Position numbers and translations under genes: made by a program
Notes under the pieces: model-generated
Database searches by the model: none
What the model was told of the DNA's origin: nothing
The model's input: only the letters and a program-made list of their open reading frames with translations
Shown: one piece after another, positions 11,379 to 63,003 of the stretch
How the letters are laid out: every line of letters starts with the position of its first letter
Numbering within the stretch: position 1 is the stretch's first letter
Source of the DNA: Escherichia phage AV112
Length of the DNA stretch: 64,000 nt
Sequence record: OR352942.1
Strand: one strand, 5' to 3'

Positions 11379-11903
11379 TCATTTTAGCAAAATAAAATCA
11401 ACTTGTTCTGCCAATGAACGTCTGAACATTAATTGACAACTTCCGAGGATGAAATCAGGTGCTTCATAGACCGCGATGTAGTATCCTTTAGCTTTCAAGA
11501 GTTCAACATCCACCTGGTCATCAAACCATGCATAAACCGCGTCAACACTTTCAAATCCAAAATAGAGCCCTTTAGCCCAATCTTCACTCAATTCAAATGT
11601 TTGCTCAATTCTATAGTATCTTAAGATATTTTGTTCAAGGAGTTTGTCTTCATTTACTGTAGGACGATTAGGGACATTATAGTTGTCGCCGTGATGGTAG
11701 AAGTTACCTGAGAGTATTCCATGCTTATCAAGGAACTCCCATGTTTCTTCAGAGTTGTCGGTGCCCGTCCAACCGTATGGCGAACGAGGTTCTTTATTCC
11801 AAGAGGTTTCCCAAATTCTGACGGCTTTACCATCTTCGATAGCAATTCCTGGTAATGATTCACGTTGAGTACAAAAACTACGTTCTACGCGGTAAACTAA
11901 CAT
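11379..11903 (-). CDS. hypothetical protein (174 aa)
   Basis: ORF with its own PeSL cassette; no recognisable motif. Confidence 0.45.
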   Translation of the reverse strand: MLVYRVERSFCTQRESLPGIAIEDGKAVRIWETSWNKEPRSPYGWTGTDNSEETWEFLDKHGILSGNFYHHGDNYNVPNRPTVNEDKLLEQNILRYYRIEQTFELSEDWAKGLYFGFESVDAVYAWFDDQVDVELLKAKGYYIAVYEAPDFILGSCQLMFRRSLAEQVDFILLK

Positions 11904-11958
11904 ATTATTCTCCTCTGGTTGATATGGTTATAATATCAAAACCAGAGGAGAAGTAAAC
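11904..11958 (-). promoter_or_regulatory. PeSL-like early promoter/stem-loop cassette
   Basis: Minus strand GTTTAC-N17-TATTAT; perfect 12-bp inverted repeat TCTCCTCTGGTT (11909-11920) / AACCAGAGGAGA (11940-11951) enclosing the -10 and containing the SD. Confidence 0.55.
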
Positions 11959-11962
11959 AACT

Positions 11963-12382
11963 TTATGCAAAAGATGCTGGACAATATTTTTTGATTTGGA
12001 ACTCAGGAACTACCATGAACTGTCCAGCGAAAACGATGTTATAAAGCTTAACACCATCTTCTACCCATTGGTCCGAAATAAAACCAGCAACTTGATTCGT
12101 TGTCCATGGAGACCCGTCAGTTGCAGAAGCAATAGTAAATTCATGGTCTTTTACAACTAAAACAGACCTGCATAGTTTCCATTTGAACGCTTTTTCTTCT
12201 GATTCAATGAATTGGCTTTTAACATAACCAATGTTACCATCGGCGTCACGAACTTTAACTTCGTTACGTCCAAAAACCGGATCACTCACAGAAAGAACTT
12301 CAACCAACTTCCCGGCAACTTTAGAGCGAGAAGCAACAGATACATATACGTAATCACCTGTAGAGAGATTTACAATATTCAT
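11963..12382 (-). CDS. hypothetical protein, member A of a tandem paralogue triplet (139 aa)
   Basis: Shares VSVASRSKVAGKLVEV and FISDQWVEDGVKLYNIVF motifs with the next ORF. Confidence 0.5.
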   Translation of the reverse strand: MNIVNLSTGDYVYVSVASRSKVAGKLVEVLSVSDPVFGRNEVKVRDADGNIGYVKSQFIESEEKAFKWKLCRSVLVVKDHEFTIASATDGSPWTTNQVAGFISDQWVEDGVKLYNIVFAGQFMVVPEFQIKKYCPASFA

Positions 12383-12391
12383 AATAATTCC

Positions 12392-12847
12392 TTAAGCTTT
12401 AAGAGGAGACACATAGCGAGTGATTTCAGATTCTTTAACAACTCGGAAGTCACCTAAGAATACGATATTGTATAACTTTTCGCCATCTTCAACCCATTGG
12501 TCACTAATGAAGCCACACATAGTATCAGTTTTGCTTGGATAACCGTATTCGTCGATGTAATCAAATTCTTTATCGGTTATAAATTCAACGCCTTTGCAAA
12601 GAGCCCATTTGAACTGTACATTAGGTTCAGTAGAAGCAAAATGAGCGCTCACACGAGTTTCCAGGAATTTAGGACTTACGTAAGCGTACTGAGTATCCTG
12701 ACGTCCAAAACTAGGAATGATTCGAACTTTAACTTCTTTAATGCGTCCCATGCCATTTGTGCGAAGTCCGACAACTTCAACCAGACGACCTGCGGCTTTA
12801 GACCGGGATGCAGTTGATACACGCTTAATTTCACCAATAGTAATCAT
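12392..12847 (-). CDS. hypothetical protein, member B of the paralogue triplet (about 151 aa; start at MITIGE)
   Basis: Motifs VSTASRSKAAGRLVEV and FISDQWVEDGEKLYNIVF; ORF-track start 12910 lies inside the promoter cassette. Confidence 0.5.
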   Translation of the reverse strand: MITIGEIKRVSTASRSKAAGRLVEVVGLRTNGMGRIKEVKVRIIPSFGRQDTQYAYVSPKFLETRVSAHFASTEPNVQFKWALCKGVEFITDKEFDYIDEYGYPSKTDTMCGFISDQWVEDGEKLYNIVFLGDFRVVKESEITRYVSPLKA

Positions 12848-12906
12848 AATTTTTCTCTCTTTGTTTAAGTTGAATTCATTATACTCCATCCGTCCTTGGA
12901 TGTACA
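12848..12906 (-). promoter_or_regulatory. PeSL-like early promoter/stem-loop cassette
   Basis: Minus strand TTGTACA-N-TATAAT; inverted repeat CATCC/GGATG; core ATTATACTCCA shared with 13431-, 55878- and 56871-type copies. Confidence 0.5.
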
Positions 12907-12909
12907 ACA

Positions 12910-13404
12910 TTAATTTAGAATATTAACTACTGCACTACGTGGAACCACACTAAAATCACCGGCATGAACAACGTTCAGAAGTTCAACACCGTCTTCAATC
13001 CACTGGTCAGTTACCCATCCATTTACTGGACCATCGAATGGGCGTCGAATTGAAACATATTTACACAATAAATCAGTAGGCTCAATAGGCTTAATCAGAG
13101 TACCGTACATACAAACGATATCCATATCAAAGTGGAGACCATCTTTAACAGGTGCTTCTTCAATCAACAGTTCAAAGTCAGTGCTTGGAAGGGCAGTAGT
13201 AGAAATTGTACCGTATGAATTTTTAATTTCTAAGAATAACCAAGGGCCTTCAACTTGTTTAATGAAGTTAACAATAGTGAAACTATTACCTTGAGTGGCG
13301 CCTAAAATTTCACAAAACTTTTCATAAGCTCGCACTGAAGCACCGTACCAGTTGATTTGTTTTTCGTCTTTCAGGATGTAAGTAGCCGTAGTATTGATAT
13401 TCAT
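12910..13404 (-). CDS. hypothetical protein, member C of the paralogue triplet (about 164 aa; ATG at 13404)
   Basis: C-terminal motif WVTDQWIEDGVELLNVVHAGDFSVV matches the family; the ORF-track start is a TTG inside the cassette. Confidence 0.45.
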   Translation of the reverse strand: MNINTTATYILKDEKQINWYGASVRAYEKFCEILGATQGNSFTIVNFIKQVEGPWLFLEIKNSYGTISTTALPSTDFELLIEEAPVKDGLHFDMDIVCMYGTLIKPIEPTDLLCKYVSIRRPFDGPVNGWVTDQWIEDGVELLNVVHAGDFSVVPRSAVVNILN

Positions 13405-13464
13405 AATGTTTTCCCGTTTGGTTAAGATAGAAAGATTATACTCCAACCATCCTTGGTTGTAAAC
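13405..13464 (-). promoter_or_regulatory. PeSL-like early promoter/stem-loop cassette; member of a roughly 45-70-bp direct-repeat family
   Basis: Minus strand GTTTAC-N18-TATAAT; GTTAAGATAGAAAGATTATACTCCAACC[A/G]TCCTTGGTTGTAAACTG recurs at 55862-55907. Confidence 0.55.
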
Positions 13465-13468
13465 TGTT

Positions 13469-14161
13469 TTATCGCTGTTTTACACTTAACGGGTCAGGAT
13501 TCTCAGGGACATCTTCAAGGCCAAGCGCATAACGCTGAGCATATTTTAACATCAAAATATCTTTAGCACAATCATGAATACTATCATGGGCAACGAATCC
13601 TTTTAGCGTACCCATCGGTAATGGACACATACTTAATCCTCGTGTCAACGAGTAAGCTTCGATTGCCGTACGAATATCGCGTTGAGCCCAGAATTTAACC
13701 GGTTCTAATTTATCAGTATCAATATCTGGTTCAAGAACACCTTCATCACGATAGAGGTCACGAATCAAATCGACCAATATCGGGAAGTCAAAGCTCATAC
13801 CACGGCACCACATCTGTGATTTCCATTGGTCAACTTTATTAGCTCGGCAATAATCTAAAAAGATTTTAATGCCTTCAAGCGTAGTGACATCGTCTTCAGA
13901 CGGAGCCAAGTTTTTACGTGCTTCAGCCGATTGTTCTTTCCACCATTTCATAGTGGATTTAGCAAAAACTCGCTTCCCTTTCTGAGAAGCCAAATTAAAT
14001 TTAATTCGCTTACCTCGTTGAACAAGTTCTTCAAATGATTCAACAACTTCAGGGTCGGAATTATATGCAATAACCGCAAGGTCAATAACAGCCGCTTTTG
14101 ATGTATTGCCGAATGTTTCAAAATCTATAATAACATCAGTGCTCATAATTTTCTCTCTCAA
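13469..14161 (-). CDS. dexA: exonuclease A (DexA), DEDD-type 3'-5' exonuclease
   Basis: Motif VIIDFETFGN at the N-terminus (DEDD exonuclease motif I); size near T4 DexA; directly downstream of dda. Confidence 0.75.
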   Translation of the reverse strand: MREKIMSTDVIIDFETFGNTSKAAVIDLAVIAYNSDPEVVESFEELVQRGKRIKFNLASQKGKRVFAKSTMKWWKEQSAEARKNLAPSEDDVTTLEGIKIFLDYCRANKVDQWKSQMWCRGMSFDFPILVDLIRDLYRDEGVLEPDIDTDKLEPVKFWAQRDIRTAIEAYSLTRGLSMCPLPMGTLKGFVAHDSIHDCAKDILMLKYAQRYALGLEDVPENPDPLSVKQR

Positions 14162-15471
14162 ATAAAATGGACGTCAAACCGACCACGAGTTGTGCCGACA
14201 TACAATAACTGTTTAGCTAATTCTGAATCGGCATAATGGATACACGGTGTATAAACAAAGGCCGTGTCAACAGACATACCCTGGGCCTTATGGAAGGTCG
14301 ATACTGGTAGTGCCTTCACCTTAGTGAACATACGTTTAGCATCCCAGAATTCGCTCCATGGAGCTTTACCACCTTTATTCCAAAATTTGTATGTTTCTGC
14401 GGTCTTAGCCAAAAACAAATTGAATTTATAAAGCTCTTCTTCAGAAGAAATAACCTTTATATCTTCGCGGATGTATTCTTCGTCGTCCCCATATGTTTCT
14501 ACTGTAAGATTCCAGTATCGTATCATATATTCGCCTGAAACACCACGTGCTTTAACAAATGTAGACGTTTCTACAGCATCTCGAATACGAACGAATTGGC
14601 CGTTATTGAAAAGCATTTCGGTAATATTTTTACCATCTAGCTTATATGTCTTAGTAAATGGCTCCTGTAGAACAATGACTTCGTCTTTAATAAATGGTTT
14701 TTCTGTTTCAAGAAGTTTTCGTCGAATAATTGAATTTAACTTGTCCACTGACTTATTTGTGAATGCCATCATTCGATTTTCGAAAAGGTCTTCAGGAGTT
14801 TTAACGACGTTAAAATAGTTCATCATATACGATTTAAGGTCTGTATATCCATGAACACCGTGCCCATCAACTACTTTATCGTAAATCCATTTGCCGTTAC
14901 GAATATCAGTCGCAACATCAATAATTGGTGCGTTGCTACGTTTAACTTCTGTAAGGTTGCATTGCACGAAGTCTTTGTGAGTGAAGAAAGGACTTAGATA
15001 CGCAGTTGATTCGCCTGGGTCTACCGGACGAATCTGGCATCGGTCGCCGATTCCAATTACTGTACACCATTTAGGGATACTAGCTAACATTATTTTAAAC
15101 AGAGAACGGTCGCACATTGACGCTTCATCAAATAACAGTACACGACACAAGGCTAAGTCGGGAACCTTTTTCTGTTCAAACAATACGTTTTCTTCGTATG
15201 TAGTTGGGTTGATTTTAAGAATGCTATGAATAGTCGATGCTTCTTGACCCGCAAGTTTGCTTAGAACCTTTTTAGCAGCATGTGTAGGGGCTGCTAAAAT
15301 AATACCTGATTCTCCAGAAGAAATAAGGGCTTCAACGATGAATCTAGTAAGGGTTGTTTTACCTGTACCGGCAGGCCCATTAATAGTTACGTGATGTTTC
15401 TTTTCTTTAATAGCGTTCATAACAACGTTGAAGGCGTTTTTCTGGCCTTCGGTCAAATCATCAAATGTCAT
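14158..15471 (-). CDS. dda: Dda DNA helicase (SF1B), 437 aa
   Basis: Walker A GPAGTGKTT, Walker B-like LLFDEASM; size and position as in T4. Confidence 0.9.
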   Translation of the reverse strand: MTFDDLTEGQKNAFNVVMNAIKEKKHHVTINGPAGTGKTTLTRFIVEALISSGESGIILAAPTHAAKKVLSKLAGQEASTIHSILKINPTTYEENVLFEQKKVPDLALCRVLLFDEASMCDRSLFKIMLASIPKWCTVIGIGDRCQIRPVDPGESTAYLSPFFTHKDFVQCNLTEVKRSNAPIIDVATDIRNGKWIYDKVVDGHGVHGYTDLKSYMMNYFNVVKTPEDLFENRMMAFTNKSVDKLNSIIRRKLLETEKPFIKDEVIVLQEPFTKTYKLDGKNITEMLFNNGQFVRIRDAVETSTFVKARGVSGEYMIRYWNLTVETYGDDEEYIREDIKVISSEEELYKFNLFLAKTAETYKFWNKGGKAPWSEFWDAKRMFTKVKALPVSTFHKAQGMSVDTAFVYTPCIHYADSELAKQLLYVGTTRGRFDVHFI

Positions 15472-16680: not shown

Positions 16681-17289
16681 TCAGTAACCGACAATAGACA
16701 GATTCCAGATTGTATAACGTCCATCTTGAATAATAGAATCTACACGCAGTGTAGTCCCTATAGGGAGCATAAATTCACATTCGTCAGATATAAGTCTAGC
16801 ATTAGACCGTCTTGTCGCTTCAGGGAAAGCTCCATTGAACTCACAAGATGGTGCAGCCAGAATCATATTAAGCATATGTTCACGGAAGTTGAAAGCAAAT
16901 GGTGCATCTTTGATGCAGAACATATTAAATGTTCCATAAAAATTATATGAAGCGAAGTTACGTGCTACACCAAACACCGGACTAAAGCTCATTACTCTGT
17001 CAAATTTAATAATACTACCAATGCCTTTATCATCGAGTGTGGCCATAGTTTTCTTAGAGATTCCACGATACATTGTCTCAGGAACAGAAGACGTCCAATT
17101 TCTACGAACAATTGCACTTAAATCTTGTTGGATGCTGTCTGGCTTGTTTTCCATACATTGCCATAGTACACTTTGTTCAATGTCGCTGAATTGCTCATCG
17201 ATTTTGTACTGAAGCATATCTTGATAATCCGGGCATTGAGCACGTCGAACCATTTCTTCAATTTCACACTCGTTATACGGCATAAACAT
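16681..17289 (-). CDS. modA: ADP-ribosyltransferase (ModA-like), 202 aa
   Basis: ART motifs: YRG (Arg), FSPVFGVAR (STS-like), acidic motif near the C-terminus; paralogous to the next ORF; T4 synteny. Confidence 0.65.
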   Translation of the reverse strand: MFMPYNECEIEEMVRRAQCPDYQDMLQYKIDEQFSDIEQSVLWQCMENKPDSIQQDLSAIVRRNWTSSVPETMYRGISKKTMATLDDKGIGSIIKFDRVMSFSPVFGVARNFASYNFYGTFNMFCIKDAPFAFNFREHMLNMILAAPSCEFNGAFPEATRRSNARLISDECEFMLPIGTTLRVDSIIQDGRYTIWNLSIVGY

Positions 17290-17346
17290 TTAGATTTCTC
17301 CTGTGGTTGATAAAGGTATAGTATCATCATCGGAAGAGTTTGTACA
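17290..17346 (-). promoter_or_regulatory. PeSL-like early promoter cassette upstream of modA
   Basis: Minus strand TGTACA ... TACTAT, GGAGA Shine-Dalgarno. Confidence 0.4.
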
Positions 17347-17928
17347 CTAAAAATTCAACATTTTCAAATGAATGATTTTGTATAATCGAGATAAAGGGTC
17401 ATATTCTAAGTCTTCAATTTTCACAATCTCAAATCTAGAGATACCTGAGACCATGTACTCTTGTTCAGATTCAATCATATCTAGGACATCGATACGAGTT
17501 TCTTCCATAACATGCTTAGGGTTCTTTCCGGCAAGTACAATGTTAACCATGTTTTGGTAGTAATCAAAAATGAATGGAGCATTCCTGAGACTAAGAATAG
17601 TGTACGTCTGATATTCCCAGCTCCCGGAGAATTGACGAGCTGTACTGAAATCAGTTGTGAACGATGTTACTCGTCCAGGAGACCAATGACATCCAACAGA
17701 AAGAAGGGAAAGACGTTCTACTTCTTCTGGAGTTACACCGCGGTAGAGTTCTACTGGTACTGTAGAAGTCATATGCTTACGAACAAGATGGTCTAATTCA
17801 TAGTGGAAATCCGGGTCTTCCTTAGAATCAGTGCAAGCCCAGAGAATGTTTTGTTCTTGGCGGGTGAATTTGCTATCAATCAGATTTGTTAGGTATTCAC
17901 GTTCTTGAAGTTCAGATTGACATGTCAT
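17347..17928 (-). CDS. modB: ADP-ribosyltransferase (ModB-like), 193 aa
   Basis: ART motifs YRGV, SFTTDFSTARQF and EQEYMVSG; paralogue of modA. Confidence 0.65.
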   Translation of the reverse strand: MTCQSELQEREYLTNLIDSKFTRQEQNILWACTDSKEDPDFHYELDHLVRKHMTSTVPVELYRGVTPEEVERLSLLSVGCHWSPGRVTSFTTDFSTARQFSGSWEYQTYTILSLRNAPFIFDYYQNMVNIVLAGKNPKHVMEETRIDVLDMIESEQEYMVSGISRFEIVKIEDLEYDPLSRLYKIIHLKMLNF

Positions 17929-23290: not shown

Positions 23291-23349
23291 TTTAACTCCT
23301 TAGTTGATTTGATAGGACTACTATACCATAGTCCATCTATAATGTAAAC
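23291..23349 (-). promoter_or_regulatory. PeSL-like early promoter/stem-loop cassette upstream of sp
   Basis: Minus strand GTTTAC-N18-TATAGT; inverted repeat TAGGACTA/TAGTCC; GGAG Shine-Dalgarno. Confidence 0.5.
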
Positions 23350-23353
23350 AACT

Positions 23354-23602
23354 TTATTCTTTTTCGCGAATAATAATTACTTGTTGAGGCTGCTGGGCAG
23401 ATTTCTTTTCGGCAACGATAGACCAAATTAAAGTTCCAATCCAACCAATCATCGTCCAGTTAAAGAGTAAAGATATAAAGAAGATTGCTGTTGTGCTTTT
23501 TGTGCCACGAATAAGTGCGATTACCCAAGGCAACATGTAAATGATGATTGAACCAATACCTGCGATTAAAACTGCTACTGAACTAGCTACGAATAATTCC
23601 AT
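23354..23602 (-). CDS. small membrane protein (82 aa, two or three TM helices)
   Basis: Hydrophobic sequence. Confidence 0.4.
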   Translation of the reverse strand: MELFVASSVAVLIAGIGSIIIYMLPWVIALIRGTKSTTAIFFISLLFNWTMIGWIGTLIWSIVAEKKSAQQPQQVIIIREKE

Positions 23603-24498: not shown

Positions 24499-24812
24499 AT
24501 TTCCTCGCAAAATGCCCATTCAGCGTGATAAACTGTAGCACCTTTAGTATCATTCATTTGAACTACGTCTACCGGAGAAATTACTCGATAGAGACGTGGT
24601 TCACCTCCATAAGAGCGTGCTGCTCGTCCTGCATAAATCTTTGCTAAACCGATATCTTCAGTAAAGAATACACGATCCAAGTTTTTCTTACGTCCAGTTT
24701 CAGACAGAACTCCTGTTTCCTCAGGAGGACAAAGCATGTTTTCGATGTTAGCTGAACTACTTGAACCGTGATAAAAAATCTTAAATTCTGCTTTACAATC
24801 GATGGTTTTCAT
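24495..24812 (-). CDS. hypothetical protein (105 aa)
   Basis: ORF directly downstream of a PeSL cassette. Confidence 0.4.
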   Translation of the reverse strand: MKTIDCKAEFKIFYHGSSSSANIENMLCPPEETGVLSETGRKKNLDRVFFTEDIGLAKIYAGRAARSYGGEPRLYRVISPVDVVQMNDTKGATVYHAEWAFCEEI

Positions 24813-24868
24813 TTTGTTCTCCAGTAGTTGATAGGTCTATAATAACACAACTACTGGAGAAGTAAACT
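24813..24868 (-). promoter_or_regulatory. PeSL-like early promoter/stem-loop cassette
   Basis: Minus strand GTTTAC-N17-TATTAT; perfect 12-bp inverted repeat CTCCAGTAGTTG (24819-24830) / CAACTACTGGAG (24848-24859); 31-bp core identical to 58491-58521. Confidence 0.55.
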
Positions 24869-25242
24869 TAAAAACGTAATTTAGATACGTCTGCGTTGAT
24901 TTCGTTTTGGTTTGCGTCGTATGCAATTAAACGAACCGCTTTAGATTGGTCATTCAATGCATAGAAATGATGGAACATTGCTCGAACGATATCACCATTT
25001 ACGAGTTCTACCTGGATAGGAGAACCTTTTTCGAGTTGGAAATGTTCATAAGCTTTGATGGTTCGCAGATAATCAAGTTTTTGATTTCCGGCTCCAACAA
25101 TTTGTACGATACGTTTGCCCATGTTTTCCATACGAGATACAATAGTTTTAGGAGCAAGAATAACGTAGGTTGCCAGCGGAGAAACTACTTCAACAGTTGT
25201 GTTTTCGGTGATTGCAGTAAAAATTGCTTGAGACATATTCAT
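24868..25242 (-). CDS. hypothetical protein (124 aa)
   Basis: ORF-track ORF. Confidence 0.4.
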   Translation of the reverse strand: MNMSQAIFTAITENTTVEVVSPLATYVILAPKTIVSRMENMGKRIVQIVGAGNQKLDYLRTIKAYEHFQLEKGSPIQVELVNGDIVRAMFHHFYALNDQSKAVRLIAYDANQNEINADVSKLRF

Positions 25243-46643: not shown

Positions 46644-46871
46644 TCATTCTATTTCCTTTGCTGCAAATAAGGCAGCATCCAACGAATCAAATTGGTCAAC
46701 GAAATCAATATTCAATGCATCGTCATCCGTAGCATATAACCACCATTGTTTGAATTCGTATTCTAGAATAAATCCAGGACCTTCAATCTGAGGAAGACCT
46801 AGACTATTTGTACTAACTTCATAACCAGCTAGACGCAGGTCATTAATCAAAGTTTCTGTTAATACGTTCAT
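46644..46871 (-). CDS. hypothetical acidic protein (75 aa)
   Basis: ORF-track ORF. Confidence 0.4.
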   Translation of the reverse strand: MNVLTETLINDLRLAGYEVSTNSLGLPQIEGPGFILEYEFKQWWLYATDDDALNIDFVDQFDSLDAALFAAKEIE

Positions 46872-47200
46872 TTTACCGCCTTAACAATTTTCAGGTCAAC
46901 GAATTTTTTCTTACGTTGATTTTTCATACGACGGATAGTCTTTTCAGAGATTTCATGTTTCTGATAAGCTTTAGATTCAACACCAAATGCAGCAACGTCA
47001 AATTCAGAAAGAATATATTGTACTAGAATTTCACGAATAGAATTACGTCCAATTTTCTGGTCGTGTTTTTGCATGATTTCATAAAGACGGAATTCCCACG
47101 CGTCAAGAACTTGAGGAGTAACAATATTGCCGGATTCAAGAAGAGCAACAACTTTATCGAAAGCGAAAGAATTAACTACGTTTTTGATTTTAGTAGACAT
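46868..47200 (-). CDS. hypothetical protein (about 110 aa; start at MSTKIK)
   Basis: ORF-track first ATG (47239) lies in the PeSL cassette; internal ATG has a GAGGAA Shine-Dalgarno. Confidence 0.4.
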   Translation of the reverse strand: MSTKIKNVVNSFAFDKVVALLESGNIVTPQVLDAWEFRLYEIMQKHDQKIGRNSIREILVQYILSEFDVAAFGVESKAYQKHEISEKTIRRMKNQRKKKFVDLKIVKAVK

Positions 47201-47266
47201 ATTATTTTCCTCGGTTATTTTATTATCCAATGAGAGCATTATACTCTGCTCTCAAGAGTTTGTAAA
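47201..47266 (-). promoter_or_regulatory. PeSL-like early promoter/stem-loop cassette; near-identical copy of 1929-1964
   Basis: TGAGAGCATTATACTCTGCTCTCAAGAGTTTGTA shared between the two loci. Confidence 0.5.
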
Positions 47267-47269
47267 TCG

Positions 47270-47482
47270 TTATCCGAACTTTTTAGCGCCTTTCCAGCCT
47301 TCGTACATAACTGCACAAGTCAGTAATACAGCGTGCTGGCATTCTTTGTATTTGTAAATCCAGAACCAGCGTAAAAAGTCTTCATCCTCAACACCGTTGA
47401 GTTTCATGTTGGCAAAGAATTCGGCACGTTCTTCACGAAGTTGCCATGACACAATATTTTCAGGATTCATTTTGTGTTCCAA
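47270..47482 (-). CDS. hypothetical protein (70 aa)
   Basis: ORF-track ORF. Confidence 0.35.
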   Translation of the reverse strand: MEHKMNPENIVSWQLREERAEFFANMKLNGVEDEDFLRWFWIYKYKECQHAVLLTCAVMYEGWKGAKKFG

Positions 47483-49733: not shown

Positions 49734-51547
49734 TGGTGTTTAACCCTATGCATGATTTCTTTATTTTTGCCGAGATTAAATCCGCGTTCGTTCGGATTTC
49801 CAAGATAACCGCATGTTCTTCTTATTGTGTTCATCTTTTTAGGATCAGTTTCTCCGCAAACTGAACAAACAAATCCGGTTTCAGTAGGAGTCATTTCATG
49901 AGTACTTCCACATGTAAAACATTTATCTACTGGCATATTAACACCAAAATAATCTAAATGTTGTGCAGCATAATCCCATACAGCCTCAAGACCTTTTAGG
50001 TTATTTTTCATATCAGGAAGTTCAACATAAGAAATGTGACCACCAGTCGCAATGAAATGATATGGCGCTTCACGAGAAATCTTTTCAAACGGAGTAATAT
50101 TTTCTTCTACTGAAACATGGAAACTATTAGTGTACCAGCCTTTATCAGTAACATCTTTTACACTTCCATATTTTTCTGTATCAAGTTTACAGAAGCGATA
50201 ACAAAGGTTTTCAGCAGGAGTAGAATACAAGCTAAAAGCAAAACCGGTTCTTTCAGTCCACTGCTTAAGACGAGCATTCATTTTAGTTAAAATTTCTTGC
50301 CCAATATCACGTCCGGCAAGAATATTCAATTCGTGAATACCAATGTATCCTAAAGACACTGAACTTCTACCGTTTTTAAATAACTCAATTATATCGTCAT
50401 CAGGTTTAAGACGAACCCCGAATGCACCTTCTTGGTAAAGAATAGGAGCAACAGTAGCTTTAACTCCTTTTAAGGAACTAATTCTACACATCAAAGCTTC
50501 AAAACACAAATCCATTCGCTCATTGAACAATTCGATAAATTTCTGTTCATTGAACTGTGTTCCAATATAAGAATCTAACGCAATGCGAGGAAGATTCAGT
50601 GTTACAACACCGAGATTATTACGTCCATCAAGAATTTCATTACCAGTCGAATCTTTCCATACGCTCAAGAAACTACGGCAACCCATTGGAGAAACAGGAA
50701 TAGACGAACCAGTGATAGCTTTATTGTTCTTAACTGAAATAATATCAGGATACATTCTTTTGCTTGCGCATTCTAAAGCAAGCTGTTTAATATCATAGTT
50801 CGGGTCGTCTTTATAAAGATTAACACCCTCTTCAACGAACATAACAAGTTTAGGGAAAATAGGAGTTATTCCATCACGACCAAGGCCTTTAATACGATTT
50901 TTCAGAATTGCTTTCTGAATCATTCGTTCAGTCCAGTCAGTTCCAGTACCAAATGTAATTGTTACAAAAGGCGTTTGTCCGTTTGAACTAAAGAGAGTAT
51001 TTACTTCGTATTCATACGCTTGGAATGCATCATATACGTCTTTTTCTGTTTTAGATTGAGCATAATTCAACGCATCAGCGATTTGCCATTTTTCTGCATC
51101 TTCAATATGTTTTGCATAGGTGCGTTTAACATAAGGAGAAAGAACTTTATCGACATTCGCAAATGTAGTTCCACCATACTGATGCGAAGCAACCTGTGCG
51201 GTAATTTGTGCCATAATTGCAGTAGCAACACCAATCGATTTAGGCGTTTCAATTTGAGCATTGCCTAATTTAAATCCATTCTCAAGCATTCCTTTTAAAT
51301 CTACTAAACAGCAATTAGTAAAAGGCAATGATATACTGTAATCTAAATCATGAAAATGAATTAATCCAACATTATGTGCATTTACAATATGACTTGGAAG
51401 AATACGACAAGCGATATGTTTAGAAACAATACCGGCCATTAAATCTCTTTTTGTTGGAAAGACACGAGAATCTTTGTTGGCGTTTTCGGTATTTAATTCT
51501 TTATCTTTATTTGAAATAAAATTTAAAACATCTTTCTCTAAAGACAT
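49730..51547 (-). CDS. nrdD: anaerobic ribonucleoside-triphosphate reductase (class III), 605 aa
   Basis: C-terminal Cys-rich zinc ribbon CFTCGS...CSVCG and glycyl-radical-type tail RTCGYLG; 605 aa as in T4. Confidence 0.9.
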   Translation of the reverse strand: MSLEKDVLNFISNKDKELNTENANKDSRVFPTKRDLMAGIVSKHIACRILPSHIVNAHNVGLIHFHDLDYSISLPFTNCCLVDLKGMLENGFKLGNAQIETPKSIGVATAIMAQITAQVASHQYGGTTFANVDKVLSPYVKRTYAKHIEDAEKWQIADALNYAQSKTEKDVYDAFQAYEYEVNTLFSSNGQTPFVTITFGTGTDWTERMIQKAILKNRIKGLGRDGITPIFPKLVMFVEEGVNLYKDDPNYDIKQLALECASKRMYPDIISVKNNKAITGSSIPVSPMGCRSFLSVWKDSTGNEILDGRNNLGVVTLNLPRIALDSYIGTQFNEQKFIELFNERMDLCFEALMCRISSLKGVKATVAPILYQEGAFGVRLKPDDDIIELFKNGRSSVSLGYIGIHELNILAGRDIGQEILTKMNARLKQWTERTGFAFSLYSTPAENLCYRFCKLDTEKYGSVKDVTDKGWYTNSFHVSVEENITPFEKISREAPYHFIATGGHISYVELPDMKNNLKGLEAVWDYAAQHLDYFGVNMPVDKCFTCGSTHEMTPTETGFVCSVCGETDPKKMNTIRRTCGYLGNPNERGFNLGKNKEIMHRVKHQ

Positions 51548-52359
51548 AATTCTAATTTATCCTTTTGAAATTCTTCGTCTAAATATGGGTTCCAACCCAT
51601 TTTAAACCTTTTGATGAAATTATCAATTCTAAATTTCGGTAAGTTTAAATCCGCAAAAATAGATGATTTACTTTTAAAATCTGGACCTAAATAATCATAT
51701 AAAATTTCTGCGTATTTTAACCATAATATACAAGTACCAGATTTAATTGCGTTCGGAGTTTTCCAAGGTTTTACACCATACATCGGATTTCCACTTCCTT
51801 TATGCCTGATAGAAGATGAAATTCCAATTTTAATTTTAGCTTCCTTTGTATGCGAAAATCCACGATGCGGATTTTCTTTCCAGTATTTTTTAGAAGCTTC
51901 TGATATTTTCTTTCTGGCTAAATTAGTATGATGCTTTCCATAAAATCCATGATTTTTGCCTTTATTACGATTTCTTTTAATCATGGTTATTGATTGCTTT
52001 TCTCTAGTTTCTTTAGAAGGAGAAATACCATATGTCGTAAATTTGCCATCAGCATATGCTAAATTAAAATACTCTTTATTCCATACATCTTTTTCTATAT
52101 TCTTTTGAAATTCAGCTTCAATGCTAGTTATTTGTTCATCTCCGACTAATTGAAAATATAATATTTCAACTTTCGGCGTTTCTTTCAATAAGGCTTTTTG
52201 AAATTCGGAAGATGACGAAGACGAATAATAAAATTTACCATTTTTATCAATAATATTCGTTCCATCAAAAGTGCAATTGGTTTTACTTCCAATGTAATAA
52301 TATGGTGGGGTTTTAGCATTAATTCTATTAATAAATGATAGTTTATATACTACATTCAT
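51538..52359 (-). CDS. freestanding GIY-YIG homing endonuclease (Seg-like), 273 aa
   Basis: N-terminal VVYKLSF...YYYIGSKTN (GIY-YIG); repeated KNHGFYGKHHT and NPMYGVKPW motifs typical of Seg/I-TevI-type linkers. Confidence 0.65.
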   Translation of the reverse strand: MNVVYKLSFINRINAKTPPYYYIGSKTNCTFDGTNIIDKNGKFYYSSSSSSEFQKALLKETPKVEILYFQLVGDEQITSIEAEFQKNIEKDVWNKEYFNLAYADGKFTTYGISPSKETREKQSITMIKRNRNKGKNHGFYGKHHTNLARKKISEASKKYWKENPHRGFSHTKEAKIKIGISSSIRHKGSGNPMYGVKPWKTPNAIKSGTCILWLKYAEILYDYLGPDFKSKSSIFADLNLPKFRIDNFIKRFKMGWNPYLDEEFQKDKLELCL

Positions 52360-53590: not shown

Positions 53591-53926
53591 TTAACCCCGG
53601 AGTTTATTGAGCTCTTCATAATCAATCCAGGATTCTAGCCCTGACGGCAGGTCACATTCAATGTTCCACAGAAGCTCTTCGATGGCTTGTAGGCGATTAT
53701 ATTCTTCAACAGTAATAGTAACCATTGTTTCAGGCTTTTTAACCATCATGTCATTCATCAGAATGTACAGGTCTTCACAAACAGCCGGGTCGTCCCATGT
53801 CCATATTTCAGCATCTCGAACTAATGAAGTCGGAATCGAATTTAAAACTTCAAGCTTAGTAGGAGCGTCAGGGCCGAGAAGAGTTGCTACAAATTTATAC
53901 GCTCTGGCGAAATCAATATCATTCAT
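53591..53926 (-). CDS. hypothetical protein (111 aa)
   Basis: ORF-track ORF. Confidence 0.4.
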   Translation of the reverse strand: MNDIDFARAYKFVATLLGPDAPTKLEVLNSIPTSLVRDAEIWTWDDPAVCEDLYILMNDMMVKKPETMVTITVEEYNRLQAIEELLWNIECDLPSGLESWIDYEELNKLRG

Positions 53927-54186
53927 TTAAAATATTCTCGCAGTTGGTCGAATCCACCAATGTGACTTCCGTCAGGAGCAAACACTTGAGGCATAGTCAA
54001 TCCGACTTGTGATTCACGTCCAAGCTTAACCAGAAGCTCAGCAATTTTCTCATCATCAAAAACACCTTTTTCTGGCATAACATTAATGAATTCGAATGGC
54101 TGTTTCTTAACAGTCAGTAATCGTTTCGCATTATCGCAATAAATGCATTTATGAATAGTAGAGTCATACCCGTACACTTTAAACAT
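53923..54186 (-). CDS. nrdC: thioredoxin/glutaredoxin-like protein NrdC (about 87 aa; start at MFKVYG)
   Basis: MFKVYGYDSTIHKCIYCDNAKRLL ... MPQVFAPDGSHIGGFDQLREYFK, near-identical to T4 NrdC as recalled; CxxC motif. Confidence 0.85.
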   Translation of the reverse strand: MFKVYGYDSTIHKCIYCDNAKRLLTVKKQPFEFINVMPEKGVFDDEKIAELLVKLGRESQVGLTMPQVFAPDGSHIGGFDQLREYFK

Positions 54187-54592
54187 TATTTTTCCTTTCA
54201 TCGATTAAATATGCAACGCCAAATACAATACATGTAATAAAACCTGTGATACAGATAGAAACCAACAACACTGTACCAAAGAACCAAATCAAGTTATCTT
54301 TAGTAGTTTGTTTGATATCCATCTCACGAATTTCTATAGCTATTGTATCACCTTTATTCAGAAGCGTATAAAACGACGGTGATACATGCCTGTCAAAAAC
54401 TCGACCTTGTTCATCTTTATAAACTGCAATAAATTCCAGTTTAGAATATTTTCCTGTAGATTGACCTGAAATTAATTCCACTACCTCCACAGGAATTACT
54501 TTAGTTTCCATGTAAGTATTCTGGCTGTTCCAAATGAATGGAATGATGGCAAAAACTAAAGCTACAATAAAACAACGAAGGCTATATCTCAT
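54179..54592 (-). CDS. membrane protein (137 aa)
   Basis: N- and C-terminal hydrophobic helices. Confidence 0.4.
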   Translation of the reverse strand: MRYSLRCFIVALVFAIIPFIWNSQNTYMETKVIPVEVVELISGQSTGKYSKLEFIAVYKDEQGRVFDRHVSPSFYTLLNKGDTIAIEIREMDIKQTTKDNLIWFFGTVLLVSICITGFITCIVFGVAYLIDERKNNV

Positions 54593-54897
54593 TATAATGT
54601 TCTCTCAAATTTGTGGAAGCATTTACGGCATTTCAATTTCAAGTTATCAGTGGTCCAGTTAACCAGTTGGACTTGGATAGTTCCACATTCCGGGCATGGA
54701 TGTTTTGCTGCCGATTTGGCAGCATTTTCACGTCGTTCAACCATTTTCATTATTTCGTTCCATGCCGGAGGAACGAACTCTTCTTCACCGTGGATTTTAT
54801 CTCGCTGAACAAATTCAATCTTTGAACTATCGTCAATAAACTTAACCAAGCTGTGATTAGTGCTCATGTCAATATCCTCTAAAAGACGTAGTTTCAT
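54592..54897 (-). CDS. zinc-ribbon protein (101 aa)
   Basis: CPECG ... CRKC pairs near the C-terminus. Confidence 0.4.
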   Translation of the reverse strand: MKLRLLEDIDMSTNHSLVKFIDDSSKIEFVQRDKIHGEEEFVPPAWNEIMKMVERRENAAKSAAKHPCPECGTIQVQLVNWTTDNLKLKCRKCFHKFERTL

Positions 54898-55847
54898 TAT
54901 AAAACCTCAATGGCATTTCGTAAACCATCCGCTTTTGCATTCAGAGCTTTTAATGATTTAGTTTGTTCTGCAATCTGGGCTTCAACTTCTTTCAGACGAG
55001 ATTTGAGGTATTCGCGTTCTTCTCTTAAGTTATCAACTTTTTCTGCTTTAGGCTCTTTAATAGGCTTAGGTTTATACGTATTAGGGTTCTTCAGTTTAAT
55101 TAGAATGCGTGAACTGTACAGCATTGAACCATTATCTTCGGTTTCGTCATACATTTCCACTACGTCCATCATCTCCACCATCGTGCAGAGTTTATAAGAC
55201 AACGAACGAATAGTTTTGTTGTGCTTATTAATTTCTTTAGAGTTCATGGTGCCTAGATTACGCGAGTAGTAATAAGGAACCTGGATATCAACTGACAATG
55301 ATGCGTTACCATTGCCAGTTGGTTTGAATACTGCAGTAACCCAATCTTTAACATGAACTTTATTTGTACGGCCATCACCGCCAGTGAATAATTTACGAGA
55401 ATGTTTAAAAAGCATATTCACTTGGTTATTGAATTCACAAGCAAATTTATCAGCAAATTTAGTTTCAGGAATGGTAGATAACCAATCAGCTAAATGAGTC
55501 TTTTTAACATCGTTAATAATAGTAAATTCAACCAAATCAGTTTTAGATGTCACAGATTTAATAAAGCTCGGCTTCATAAAGTTTTTAATGTTATCGCGAG
55601 CTACAGTAGAAGATAATAAACGAGAACGTTTGAACCATTGAAGCAGTGTCCCTAATGAATGAGAATACGCATTCTGAGTATCTTTACAGATATGATTTTC
55701 TTGGCCTGTGTATGTACCAAAATCGCGAAGAATACCGCTTACTACAACTCGGTGTGGAACATCAAATCCTAATGAACCAGAAGCACGTTGGGCATGAACG
55801 TTAGCGATAAGACCTGCAAAATAATCAATGTAATGTGAACGTGTCAT
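54897..55847 (-). CDS. hypothetical protein with C-terminal coiled coil (316 aa)
   Basis: C-terminal heptad-rich stretch KVDNLREEREYLKSRLKEVEAQIAEQTKSLKALNAKADGLRNAIEVL. Confidence 0.45.
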   Translation of the reverse strand: MTRSHYIDYFAGLIANVHAQRASGSLGFDVPHRVVVSGILRDFGTYTGQENHICKDTQNAYSHSLGTLLQWFKRSRLLSSTVARDNIKNFMKPSFIKSVTSKTDLVEFTIINDVKKTHLADWLSTIPETKFADKFACEFNNQVNMLFKHSRKLFTGGDGRTNKVHVKDWVTAVFKPTGNGNASLSVDIQVPYYYSRNLGTMNSKEINKHNKTIRSLSYKLCTMVEMMDVVEMYDETEDNGSMLYSSRILIKLKNPNTYKPKPIKEPKAEKVDNLREEREYLKSRLKEVEAQIAEQTKSLKALNAKADGLRNAIEVL

Positions 55848-55905
55848 AATATTTTCCTCTCGTTAAGATAGAAAGATTATACTCCAACCGTCCTTGGTTG
55901 TAAAC
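55848..55905 (-). promoter_or_regulatory. PeSL-like early promoter cassette; direct repeat of 13405-13464
   Basis: GTTAAGATAGAAAGATTATACTCCAACCGTCCTTGGTTGTAAACTG: 45 bp with 1 mismatch to the copy at 13421. Confidence 0.55.
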
Positions 55906-55909
55906 TGAT

Positions 55910-56842
55910 TTATGATTTTAATGCATTCATTGCGTTAAAAAGTTTAGAGTACTGCAACTGGAGCTTGGTAACTACTTGTTGAGCATCACGAAGCTTAGCT
56001 TGTGCTTTGTCAAGTTCAACAGACAGTTGATCCACAGTGCCTTTGATTTGATTATAATAGTAATCTTCGGCAGGAAGAAGGCCGTTAGAGATTTCCAGTT
56101 TAGTCGTCGGTGTGCCGTTAAACATAACAGGTTGTGCTGAAGCTGCATTAATCTTACCGATAGTCGGGGCGACAATAATTGACGCTTCGAACGTTGCATT
56201 TTCCTTTTTAAGATTTTGATAGTATTCAGAGTCTTTGTGCCACCATGGCGCAGGAACCTTTTTACCAATAGATACACGAGCCTGGATAGCGATATGGCCC
56301 TTATTCTTGATAACGTCGATAATATTAAGCTCACGAGAATAAATTGCTTTAATCTGGTGAATATTATCACCTAACACTTCCAACGCTTGGTGGAATACAC
56401 GAGCAACGTTATCATTCTTAGGTTTATACGTAAGAGTGAACTCGTTCTCACTGATAACCATGATTTCTAACTTATCGTAAGTATATTTCAAATGTTTCAT
56501 GTTAATTGCTTGAGGACGAATACGAGAAGCAATGGCCATCAGATTGTTAAGGTTATTCCGGAACTGCTTAGCGAAATATTGTCCTTCACCACCAATACAA
56601 AAATTACGAAGTTTCTGTTTGGCTAATAAACGGCTGAACTCACCGTTTTTAATGAACTCTTTAACGGGTGTGTTAGTAACGCATTCAAATTGAGTAAACT
56701 TACGAGAAGTAATCCCATAATATGAACAGATTTCCTCAATCTCTTCAGGAGTCTTTACAGGCATACGGATAGGATTAGGACCTGGGGTATATGCGTTCGA
56801 GGTAAATTCTTTGATAAGTTCTCTACGTGTAATAGAAGCCAT
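55910..56842 (-). CDS. hypothetical protein with C-terminal coiled coil (310 aa)
   Basis: C-terminal DQLSVELDKAQAKLRDAQQVVTKLQLQYSKLFNAMNALKS. Confidence 0.45.
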   Translation of the reverse strand: MASITRRELIKEFTSNAYTPGPNPIRMPVKTPEEIEEICSYYGITSRKFTQFECVTNTPVKEFIKNGEFSRLLAKQKLRNFCIGGEGQYFAKQFRNNLNNLMAIASRIRPQAINMKHLKYTYDKLEIMVISENEFTLTYKPKNDNVARVFHQALEVLGDNIHQIKAIYSRELNIIDVIKNKGHIAIQARVSIGKKVPAPWWHKDSEYYQNLKKENATFEASIIVAPTIGKINAASAQPVMFNGTPTTKLEISNGLLPAEDYYYNQIKGTVDQLSVELDKAQAKLRDAQQVVTKLQLQYSKLFNAMNALKS

Positions 56843-56897
56843 TTTATATTCCTCATGTTGAAAAATTTATTATACTCCAACCATCCTTGGTTGTACA
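56843..56897 (-). promoter_or_regulatory. PeSL-like early promoter cassette (same repeat family)
   Basis: TATTATACTCCAACCATCCTTGGTTGTACA. Confidence 0.5.
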
Positions 56898-57893
56898 TCA
56901 TTCCTTAAGAAGTTTTACTACTTGAATAAGATTAGCTCGTTCTGTTTTATTTTTACCGTTTAAGCCTGCTAATCGTGAGATTTCATCGTCAGTCTGTTGA
57001 ATAGTTACATTAAGTTCGTTAATCAAAGCTTCAAAGTATTTGATTTGCTCAGCATGTTTTGATTCAAATTTCTGAACCGGAATAACGTCTTGGTTTAGTT
57101 CATCAATAAGGTCTTTAAGAGCATCTTCTTGATTGATATCATATTCAACTTCTTTTATTTCTTCAACGAGCTCGTCTTTATATCTAACGTCTTTTAGTCC
57201 TGGTGCTGGTCCTGAAATCTCTTCTTTAAGAGTACAAACATATCCAATACGGTATCCAATGCCGTCTCGCTTGATATCAACTTCGTCAATAAATCCACAA
57301 TGTTTAAGACCAGAGCCGATTAAGTCAAAATATCCTTGACGACGTCCTTCAAACGTTACACGAACTACTAAGACAGTTTTACCTGCAACCTTTTGAAGCT
57401 CACATTTATAAAAGTTTGTTGAACCTGAATAACGTGGATGAGTTTTAAAGTTCATCTGACGATCTAGGCCCATTTGTAAGCGTGCTGATACGGCCATAAA
57501 ACGTGTTTGGTTCTCGTTAAGATGAGCAACAATCCATTTCAAAGGCATTTTACACTGTTCACGACCGAACAAATCAGTACGTCCTAGATTACGCAGGATG
57601 TTGTTAGAGTTAATCATCGACAGAACATTAAGTTTATTCAGCGCGCTGAAGATTCCATCAGCCATTGATTTTCCGTAACCTTTACACGCTTTAATAAGCG
57701 CTCGCGGTAGATTAGCATAGATTTCAGACGGCATATGAAAATCAAATTTACTAGTCAGTAATTGATGAACTTGGATAGCAATTTGCTCATAATTAAGTGC
57801 TCTGCGATCATTATGATCTTTAAACCACACTTTAATCTGTGAAGCACATAAACCGTTAATTTCATGTTTTACCGCATCAGATGTAATGCTCAT
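56898..57893 (-). CDS. hypothetical protein with C-terminal coiled coil (331 aa)
   Basis: C-terminal EQIKYFEALINELNVTIQQTDDEISRLAGL... Confidence 0.45.
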   Translation of the reverse strand: MSITSDAVKHEINGLCASQIKVWFKDHNDRRALNYEQIAIQVHQLLTSKFDFHMPSEIYANLPRALIKACKGYGKSMADGIFSALNKLNVLSMINSNNILRNLGRTDLFGREQCKMPLKWIVAHLNENQTRFMAVSARLQMGLDRQMNFKTHPRYSGSTNFYKCELQKVAGKTVLVVRVTFEGRRQGYFDLIGSGLKHCGFIDEVDIKRDGIGYRIGYVCTLKEEISGPAPGLKDVRYKDELVEEIKEVEYDINQEDALKDLIDELNQDVIPVQKFESKHAEQIKYFEALINELNVTIQQTDDEISRLAGLNGKNKTERANLIQVVKLLKE

Positions 57894-57955
57894 ATCTATT
57901 TCCTCAGATTGAATTGGAACTCAAAACCATTATAACCCGTCCTTGGGTAAAGCGT
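57894..57955 (-). promoter_or_regulatory. degenerate promoter cassette (MotA-box-like aaaCGCTTTA - 13 nt - TATAAT)
   Basis: Minus strand CGCTTTACCCAAGGACGGGTTATAAT; related to the repeat family. Confidence 0.35.
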
Positions 57956-58483
57956 TTATGCGTGAACCGTCTTTAAACGTTCTTCAAATTTCCGAAGAGT
58001 ACTAATACGTTCTGCTTTCTGTTTTGTATAGTTTGCAATACGTTCTGAAGTGAGAGCGTATCGTTCGTTTACTGTTTCTTTCATGAAGTCAGGGATTTCA
58101 CGAGAAGCTTTAATTTCATCAAACTTATCGAGTACTGCCTGGTCTTCAGCGATTAAATTTTCGTACATCTCGATATCTTTCTTGATGAAGTCGATATCTT
58201 CCTGGGTTACTTTGGATAAACGAGATGCTTTATCCTTTTTGTATTGCTCGTTAGTTTCACGAGACCAGAATAATGTACGTTTTTTGTTAGTGTTTTTGTA
58301 GACTTCCACAATTCCAACTGAATCGATGATAGCAATCCAATTCCAGCGAGATTTGAAAATCTGACCTCCGTCCACGGTAATCTCGTTACCATAAGCAACA
58401 TCATTAAAGAACTTGCTTTGTGCTTCAGATTTAAATTTACCGTCGTTATAATTTACCAGGTTGAAAATATCTTTAGCGTTCAT
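57956..58483 (-). CDS. hypothetical protein (175 aa)
   Basis: ORF-track ORF downstream of a PeSL cassette. Confidence 0.4.
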   Translation of the reverse strand: MNAKDIFNLVNYNDGKFKSEAQSKFFNDVAYGNEITVDGGQIFKSRWNWIAIIDSVGIVEVYKNTNKKRTLFWSRETNEQYKKDKASRLSKVTQEDIDFIKKDIEMYENLIAEDQAVLDKFDEIKASREIPDFMKETVNERYALTSERIANYTKQKAERISTLRKFEERLKTVHA

Positions 58484-58540
58484 GTTTTACCTCCAGTAGT
58501 TGATAGGTCTATAATAACACAACCATAGACCTTGTAAACA
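58484..58540 (-). promoter_or_regulatory. PeSL-like early promoter/stem-loop cassette
   Basis: Minus strand GTTTAC-N17-TATTAT; shares a 31-bp core with 24819-24849 but the downstream stem arm is replaced by ATAGACC, which pairs with GGTCTAT. Confidence 0.55.
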
Positions 58541-58541
58541 A

Positions 58542-58829
58542 CTAAAAGAAACTTTTTTCGGTATTTTTTCCACTGAACCAAACCGACTTCGGGACTTTCT
58601 GTAATTTTTCGGATTTAAGTTTCTCTTCCTGTTCTTTCTTATATGCATCCTTGTCGTACTGGAACAATTCTAAGGCATTCTTTTGTAGACGGTCTAAGGT
58701 AATTAAGGCTTTAGTTTTTCCTTTCAAGGAAGAGTCCTGGCGAACCTCCTCGCTATATTGCATCGTAGAACTAACCATACGATGAGCATACAGTTCGACT
58801 GCGGCTTTAATTTTTTGCATAAAATCCAT
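58542..58829 (-). CDS. hypothetical protein (95 aa)
   Basis: AGAGGA Shine-Dalgarno before the ATG. Confidence 0.4.
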   Translation of the reverse strand: MDFMQKIKAAVELYAHRMVSSTMQYSEEVRQDSSLKGKTKALITLDRLQKNALELFQYDKDAYKKEQEEKLKSEKLQKVPKSVWFSGKNTEKSFF

Positions 58830-58967
58830 AACATATCCTCTTTGATTTGTACACCATTATTTTTAAATATTTCTATGCCCTCAGTAGGTTCCTGGTGTCC
58901 TTCTTTGAGGTAAGCCATATGATTATTCATCTTTATGGCTTTTGTTACCTCAGAACTTCCTATAAGC

Positions 58968-62945: not shown

Positions 62946-63003
62946 TTTGTTCTCCATTTGTTTTGGTAGGATTACTATATCATAGTCCTACCAAGACGTA
63001 AAC
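62946..63003 (-). promoter_or_regulatory. PeSL-like early promoter/stem-loop cassette
   Basis: Minus strand GTTTAC-N18-TATAGT; inverted repeat GGTAGGA/TCCTACC; GGAG Shine-Dalgarno. Confidence 0.5.

Follow-up and report, generated by a model that had tools for sequence, protein, structure and literature searches.

Near-identical intergenic repeats of a Mosigvirus genome as probable early-promoter cassettes and recurrent endpoints of accessory gene deletion

The closest described relatives of the repeats analyzed here are the promoter-early stem-loops (PeSLs) of T4-type phages, which have been reported for RB49/phi1 (Arbiol et al. 2010, PMC2839356) and for T4/PST and KVP40/nt-1, with TTTACW-N17-TAYWAT as the promoter consensus in T4/PST (Comeau et al. 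2014, PMC4122927). T4 early promoters in general are very strong sigma70 promoters that combine -35 and -10 elements with UP-like A-rich elements and extra consensus positions and that are active as soon as the phage infects (Hinton 2010, PMC2988021). Our data indicate that dispersed intergenic repeats in a 64,000-nucleotide stretch of phage DNA (the window) are very probably paralogous copies of one T4-type, PeSL-like early-promoter cassette subfamily whose neighboring copies bound recurrent gene losses. These cassettes are not a new kind of element, and nothing about them should surprise a T4 specialist. In classical T4 rII deletion studies, DNA between short direct repeats was reportedly lost, leaving one hybrid copy. 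The outcome described below is the same, but the repeats are regulatory cassettes and their product is expected to be correctly expressed; moreover, the rII deletions were laboratory mutants, whereas the losses of nrdC.5 and motB.1 are natural polymorphism.

Positions 12000-15000 of the window match Escherichia phage AV113 at 100% identity (OR352943.1; Straboviridae, Tevenvirinae, Mosigvirus), and among the Mosigviruses the window falls in the RB69/JS09 group; a window coordinate equals the AV113 record coordinate minus 63999. An initial annotation had pointed to near-identical repeats 42 kb apart, and this pair is real: 13421-13466 (site A) and 55862-55907 (site B) agree at 45 of 46 positions, differing by A/G at 13449/55890, and the 46-nt unit had no match in 100 dinucleotide-preserving shuffles of the window (chance expectation, 0). 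Only the end of the first copy had been misplaced, at 13465 instead of 13466. The likeness of A and B reaches about 70 nt (88.6% identity over 70 nt), which is nearly the entire intergenic gap. The shorter versions listed at 12875-12906, 56866-56897, and 57927-57950 also exist, as weaker copies. The stretch 56869-56897 (site C) is the 29-nt promoter core with 1 mismatch, its 27-nt core being identical to that of site A; 12876-12906 (site D) contains the 27-nt core (at 12878-12904) with 3 mismatches; and 57927-57950 (site E) is a degenerate copy that is about 6 nt shorter. A repeat finder clusters these copies together with many further 40- to 60-nt intergenic repeats of the window. The initial annotation had thus located the repeats correctly while overlooking their identity as predicted early promoters on the opposite strand.

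Of all 210 pairings of early-promoter-like elements in the window, none is closer than A/B (87% of 61 aligned nt; median, 46%), and the runners-up, 1964/47266 (79%) and 24866/58538 (75%), both come from other subfamilies. The likeness is not specific to AV113, with A and B identical over 48 nt in RB69 and over 49 nt in JN02. Phage records with the element number 209; a Mosigvirus typically has two strong places for it and a Dhakavirus has one, upstream of nrdC.4, with the Dhakavirus orthologue of site B being 81 to 87% identical. Over about 200 genomes and across genera the core is nearly invariant, while the flanking genes diverge by 2 to 8% or more. A scan of IMG/VR with the core returned 10 loci, every one of them at these orthologous sites in Mosigvirus and Dhakavirus. 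Each genome holds four or five copies, a number based on the 64-kb window, stretches of about 48 kb from three relatives, and a whole-contig scan. The coordinates are collected in the table, in which gene names are taken from the better-annotated relatives JS09 and RB69; every gene around the repeats is on the minus strand.

Table. Window coordinates of the cassette copies, their predicted promoter elements, and the flanking genes
Feature	Coordinates	Strand	Description
Site A	13405..13468	-	Cassette between dexA (stop at 13469) and motB.1 (ATG at 13404)
Site A predicted promoter	-35 TTTACA 13463-13458; -10 TATAAT 13440-13435	-	11/12 consensus, 17-nt spacer
Site A hairpin in spacer	13459-13444	-	CAACCA-AGGA-TGGTTG
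Site A full order		-	GATAAAACAG-TTTACA-ACCAAGGATGGTTGGAG-TATAAT-CTTTCTATCTTAACCAAACGGGAAAACATT-ATG; CTTTCTATCTTAACCAAACGGGAAAACATT is the UTR
Site D	12848..12909	-	Cassette between motB.1 (stop at 12910) and motB (true ATG at 12847)
Site D predicted promoter	-35 TGTACA 12906-12901; -10 TATAAT 12883-12878	-	10/12 consensus
Site D hairpin variant		-	CATCCA-AGGAC-GGATG; compensatory A-T to T-A change
Site B	55848..55909	-	Cassette between nrdC.5 (stop at 55910) and nrdC.3 (ATG at 55847)
Site B predicted promoter	-35 TTTACA 55904-55899; -10 TATAAT 55881-55876	-	11/12 consensus; loop base C, not T
Site C	56843..56897	-	Cassette between nrdC.6 (stop at 56898) and nrdC.5 (ATG at 56842)
Site C predicted promoter	-35 TGTACA 56897-56892; -10 TATAAT 56874-56869	-	10/12 consensus
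Site E	57894..57954	-	Degenerate copy between nrdC.8 and nrdC.6; TTTACCCAAGGACGGGTTATAAT; -35 start about 57950
motB.1	12910..13404	-	164 aa; C-terminal MotB domain PF17613; phrog_2333; between A and D
nrdC.5	55910..56842	-	310 aa; DUF7235; between C and B
motB	12392..12847	-	151 aa; PF17613; downstream of predicted promoter D
nrdC.3	54897..55847	-	316 aa; phrog_1435; no Pfam match; downstream of predicted promoter B
nrdC.6	56898..57893	-	331 aa; phrog_2257; no Pfam match; upstream neighbor of site C

In a consensus scan, A and B were the top matches of their regions (TTTACA-17-TATAAT), with C and D following the pattern TGTACA-17-TATAAT; the spacing of 16 to 18 nt that defines a sigma70 early promoter is found at A to D and is lost at E. 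The four copies are co-oriented with motB.1, motB, nrdC.3, and nrdC.5 and lie 25 to 35 nt upstream of a Shine-Dalgarno sequence (SD) and ATG. A pattern search of the window returned about 21 elements of this type on its minus strand, all with an SD and ATG shortly downstream, and on its plus strand almost none that were sensibly placed. The -35 region fits the GTTTAC (-36 to -31) of T4-type early promoters; a middle-promoter reading, which calls for the MotA box TGCTTtA, was rejected, the -35 region being GTTTACA with no MotA box. Adjoining the -35 on its upstream side is an A-rich, UP-like stretch at A (GATAAAACAG), B (CATAAATCAG), and D (TAAATTAATG), while the corresponding sequence at C (AAGGAATGA) is less A-rich and falls within the coding end of nrdC.6. 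The leader of nrdC.6 has the degenerate copy E in the same arrangement of promoter, UTR, SD, and ATG. Site E, whose sequence is the same in RB69, keeps a hairpin remnant and the -10 box, its -35/-10 spacing has collapsed, and the promoter scan made no call there; it is probably a weak or dead promoter.

The extended -10 motif (TGn) is absent at the copies, where GAG precedes TATAAT and the scan reports no TG. This motif is present in most T4 early promoters and is not obligatory for the class. The subfamily differs in this respect from the T4 early promoters reviewed earlier (PMC2988021), with which it shares the -35, the -10, the UP-like A-rich elements, and predicted immediate-early activity. 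The promoters themselves were already predicted in RB69, the type species of the genus, in 2006: the RB69 orthologues of A, D, B, and C fall inside Pe:8947, Pe:8387, Pe:51019, and Pe:52042, respectively (Nolan et al. 2006, PMC1524935, Additional file 3). That list, in which all four orthologues are entries, gives coordinates and a consensus logo only and does not mention the shared-spacer subfamily, the 42-kb pair, or a link to indels. Independently, the NBG1 record carries a promoter feature, entered by its depositors, on the same 29 nt of site B. On the strength of consensus and orthology, host sigma70 RNA polymerase would begin transcription some 7 nt past each TATAAT as soon as infection starts, and motB.1, motB, nrdC.3, and nrdC.5 would each receive an early transcript of its own with a common 5' leader. 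Intergenic repeats of this sort should carry an early-promoter label when genomes are annotated.

Several annotations around the copies deserve comment. JS09 and RB69 annotate a 151-aa MotB from the ATG at window position 12847, with a proper SD, and the start of the AV113 CDS WPK34750.1 (window 12392-12910) is over-extended through promoter D so that it abuts the motB.1 stop. The AV113 record calls the nrdC.x run "thioredoxin" (window 53923-59948 and beyond; record 117922-123947, then 124657 onward); the thioredoxin in that run is nrdC alone, and the label has been over-propagated to the nrdC.x genes. Three tandem MotB-family paralogues, 44 to 62% identical over parts, occupy 11963-13404 (motB.1, motB, and a 139-aa MotB-like gene), and ModA/ModB at 16681-17928 are likewise paralogues (32%). 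In ST0, about 600 bp downstream of site D (46682-47285) have no annotated gene where motB is expected, which may reflect a pseudogene or a missed annotation; the site D -10 box of this phage is TATAGT.

The spacer contains the dyad CAACCA-AGGA-TGGTTG, a stem of 5 to 6 bp that at site D and at the Dhakavirus orthologue of site B becomes CATCCA...TGGATG through a compensatory A-T to T-A change. Across 13 distinct variants, 94.9% of cells are paired versus 9 to 49% with the partner slid, the covariation consisting of a single pair in two lineages. The folding energy of the stem is indistinguishable from that of shuffles (z -0.1 to -0.9); stems elsewhere in the window, in other promoter subfamilies, are strong (z -3 to -5.4). 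A terminator scan made no call at any copy, and a U-tract after the stem is absent; with no scan calls and folds no better than shuffles, a reading of this subfamily as intrinsic terminators was rejected. The dyad is broken, its stem mismatched, in the viable JK42 chimera described below. At the dexA/motB junction of RPN187, the loop variant CCATGG turns the spacer into a perfect 12-nt palindrome, CATCCATGGATG.

Compared with the published PeSLs, the copies share the layout of an intergenic cassette that begins at the stop codon of one gene and ends at the start codon of the next, with an A/T-rich upstream part and a strong sigma70-type promoter sequence that matches TTTACW-N17-TAYWAT exactly. 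The inverted repeat between -35 and -10, followed by SD and ATG, is among the commonest published layouts. Clustering beside dispensable genes and a chimeric element at single-gene indels of close relatives are also common to both. As a repeated cassette, the element occurs in four or five copies in the dexA-cef and nrdC.x regions, beside MotB-family and DUF or unknown genes. The published stems, in contrast, are strong terminators, whereas the AV113 stem of 5 to 6 bp is marginal and not terminator-like. The subfamily fits the PeSL definition well in its promoter half and poorly in its stem-loop/terminator half. Mosigvirus and the loci dexA-motB and nrdC.3-nrdC.6 are absent from the PeSL papers (PMC2839356, PMC4122927), and the Mosigviruses document several crossover classes at one repeat pair.

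Evidence for recombination between neighboring copies came from related genomes. The first sign was that F2 lacks about 970 bp in a search with the nrdC-distal region. The missing gene is nrdC.5, which is also absent from FL18, AV115, FL31, and PTE-Eco05, with one intergenic element left in each; sites C and B, which bound this loss, are 993 bp apart, and sites A and D, which bound the loss of motB.1, are 557 bp apart. In the nrdC.5-less junction, the upstream flank and -35 side come from site C and the UTR, SD, and start from site B, with the switch from C to B inside the shared core. This junction was found full-length in 21 of 155 matching records, representing 19 distinct phages. In distance matrices of 900-nt flanks on either side, the nrdC.5-less phages do not group together and are not monophyletic: the nearest relative of F2 is ST0 (0.9%) and that of FL31 is phiE142 (1.4%), both of which have nrdC.5. 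The flanks disfavor a single origin of the loss, and one event with later spread by recombination is possible.

The dexA-proximal block shows a corresponding loss of about 555 bp, amounting to motB.1, in JK45 and JK42; about 18 related phages lack this gene, and the JK42-type junction has a full-length match in about 19 records. We read seven motB.1-less junctions (JK42, JK45, AV115, RPN187, PTK, G2285, and AV109) with four markers that differ between A and D: the hexamer at -35, one stem base on the 5' side and one on the 3' side, and the stretch that follows the -10. G2285 and RPN187 have the A state at the first marker and the D state at the remaining three, placing the crossover after the -35; JK42 has two A states followed by two D states, with a crossover in the loop and a mismatched stem; and AV115 and PTK have three A states followed by D, with a crossover within TGGAGTATAAT. 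JK45 also begins with three A states and then becomes a mosaic, a GAATCTAT patch being followed by D sequence. AV109 is out of register: site A through TGGTTGGAG is fused to site D from ATGTTGTACA, so that its dexA/motB gap (OR352939.1 82582-82812) holds a partial site A element in tandem with a complete site D element and the endpoint lies off the repeat register. The motB.1 losses comprise at least four different crossover points and one out-of-register fusion, classes from which the number of events is estimated as a lower bound and some of which could go back to a single deletion whose product later exchanged DNA with intact genomes. Each of the two genes is deleted in about 12% of related genomes, and all four combinations of nrdC.5 and motB.1 presence and absence occur. 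T4 has orthologues of both genes, arranged in the same order (RB69 notes), which makes loss more parsimonious than gain; re-insertion via a circle, as in the PeSL model, possibly occurs.

These junctions identify the neighboring copies as recurrent deletion endpoints. Because the copies share an identical core of 27 to 50 nt, lie in one orientation, and have dispensable genes between them, they would act as short direct repeats, between which homologous recombination or replication slippage would delete, and possibly re-insert, the intervening gene. After a loss, a single functional chimeric promoter would serve the next gene. That deletion between neighbors happened is recorded in the junction sequences; as to its route, they would fit UvsX-type recombination or replication slippage. 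When related genomes were compared for deletions ending at the repeats, such breakpoints were present, and the initial proposal that the repeats are recombination substrates holds for neighboring copies, whose chimeric junctions lie in the core, and is not supported for the 42-kb pair. The RB69/JS09 group, which includes therapeutic-candidate coliphages, offers a clean natural example of how T4-type phages may lose accessory genes without disturbing the expression of neighbors: the breakpoints are the predicted promoters themselves, and what survives is predicted to be a working hybrid promoter. The occurrence of several crossover classes in one 557-bp interval suggests that such events are frequent enough for laboratory measurement.

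A different kind of change is seen at the motB site of the T4-like phage GiZh. Its motB leader, AACAAAGAGAGAAAAATT-ATGATTACTAT, is orthologous, and the promoter before it, TTTACA-AACTCTTGGGACCAGAG-TATAAT-GGTCC, belongs to a different subfamily and resembles window 1964/47266. After this promoter comes a remnant, GGAGTATAAATCTTAACAAC, identical to RB69 site D. The foreign promoter and the site D remnant indicate, therefore, that promoter modules and genes have re-associated at the motB site.

It could be argued that the copies are alike solely through promoter selection on spacer and leader and have no special part in rearrangement. The near-invariance of the core against more divergent flanks agrees with this, as do the consensus positions that T4 early promoters carry outside the hexamers. 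Regulatory conservation alone is nevertheless contradicted by two genes whose deletions run precisely from copy to copy and leave chimeric junctions with several crossovers inside the core, and GiZh, where the promoter module of another subfamily stands in place of this one, also speaks against it; we consider it improbable as the whole explanation. A related proposal would give the spacer dyad and the following GGAG a function of their own, as a protein operator or as a site of RNA processing on read-through RNA, for example by RegB, which cuts at GGAG; motB.1, motB, nrdC.3, and nrdC.5 would then form a small co-regulated set. The spacer is kept far beyond what sigma70 needs and is common to exactly these four or five promoters, the compensatory change preserves its dyad, and GGAG is invariant in A to D and in Dhakaviruses. 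Against these points, the operator version names no protein that binds the dyad (MotB binds DNA non-specifically), the hairpin is thermodynamically marginal, JK42-type phages are viable with the dyad broken, and the covariation is a single pair dividing two copy lineages that may go back to one event. We consider such a function unlikely. Even less can be said for a mobile element, MITE-like or homing-associated, that inserts at intergenic sites. Near-identical dispersed copies 42 kb apart and the swapping of promoter modules at orthologous sites might bring one to mind, but the copies showed neither terminal inverted repeats nor target-site duplications and had no transposase or endonuclease associated with them. 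They occupy the same four orthologous sites in every Mosigvirus examined and, in the whole-contig scan, these sites alone in each genome. We regard mobility as extremely improbable.

Gene deletion between neighboring cassette copies, the reading that we favor, leaves the 42-kb pair to be accounted for. The initial annotation had proposed that A and B recombine with each other, so that the dexA-proximal and nrdC-distal blocks could undergo deletion or exchange cassettes, and it is true that they are the most alike pair and that the length of their identity is near the homology sufficient for T4 recombination. Requiring at least 80% coverage in one place, however, we searched 50,697 phage records with synthetic A-upstream/B-downstream and B-upstream/A-downstream junctions and found them in 0 of 167 and 0 of 152 half-matching records, respectively. 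All-against-all BLASTP of 124 minus-strand open reading frames found paralogues within the blocks only (the motB trio and ModA/ModB), and no protein family is shared between them. The 42-kb interval encodes Srd, ModA/B, gp56, gp61, gp41, UvsX, gp43, RegA, gp62/44, gp45, gp46/47, gp55, NrdD/G, and gp49, whose functions include DNA polymerase, clamp, clamp loader, helicase, and primase. Because the interval holds these replication genes, a deletion between A and B would be lethal, as the loss of such genes is in T4 genetics, and a 42-kb duplication would exceed headful capacity. Gross rearrangement between A and B is effectively refuted among sequenced isolates, and the proposed deletion or exchange between the two blocks has correspondingly little to recommend it.

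Exchange of short tracts is a separate matter. After the -10, site B has the allele CTTTCTATC, the same as site A, in AV113, RB69, JN02, and F2, and the alternatives GAATCTATC, GAATTTATC, or GAACCTATC in JS09, ST0, FL18, NBG1, and PTE-Eco05, with GAAT as in site D. The GAATCTAT patch at the dexA/motB junction of JK45 is otherwise seen at site B, and the T/C polymorphism of the loop recurs at differing sites in differing genomes. All three observations hint at patchy long-range exchange. On the other side, the Dhakavirus outgroup is CTTTC-like at the orthologue of site B, so the A-like allele of B, and with it part of the patch pattern, may be ancestral. Long-range gene conversion of short tracts between dispersed copies, which would produce clustered differences of this kind, is possible. 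One could go further and suppose that the subfamilies defined by spacer and hairpin are recombination-compatibility groups, with tract exchange over tens of kilobases (concerted evolution of A/D with B/C) in addition to precise gain and loss, with expression preserved, of the genes between neighboring members; the spacer dyad would then have been selected for exchange or for binding of a common factor and not for termination. This idea is doubtful in our view. We favor common descent of the cassette together with strong constraint as the origin of the near-identity of A and B, to which occasional short-tract gene conversion may add; such an origin would entail no gross rearrangement and would accord with a cassette conserved genus-wide and, at site B, into Dhakavirus.

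The window also contains other promoter subfamilies. One of them supplies a second near-identical pair of early-promoter elements, 45 kb apart at 1916-1974 and 47218-47276 (minus strand), with 34 identical nt (ACAAACTCTTGAGAGCAGAGTATAATGCTCTCAT) and an 8-bp stem that brackets the -10 box (z about -3). The promoter of this 1964/47266 type upstream of motB in GiZh has the compensatory stem GGGACC/GGTCC. A third subfamily has four copies spread over 60 kb (2182-2235, 2694-2747, 23305-23358, and 62959-63012, minus strand), with a TATAGT -10 box enclosed by the stem TAGGACTAT...AGTCCTA (z -3.4). In the early promoters at 24795-24880, 11890-11970, and also 58479-58558 (minus strand), the spacer and the leader that follows are complementary over 12 to 14 bp, the Shine-Dalgarno sequence among them (CTCCAGTAGTTG...CAACTACTGGAG; z -4.9 and -5.4; dG about -25 kcal/mol), with the -10 box in the loop. 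In this arrangement, the ribosome-binding site would be predicted to be sequestered in transcripts reading through from upstream and accessible in those that begin at the promoter. Finally, a homing endonuclease gene at 51538-52359 (AV113 115537-116358) lies directly upstream of the endonuclease VII gene (gp49). In JS09, nrdD abuts gene 49 with no homing endonuclease gene between them, and ST0 has an unannotated gap of about 800 bp there; this is another presence/absence polymorphism, different in kind from the promoter-bounded losses.
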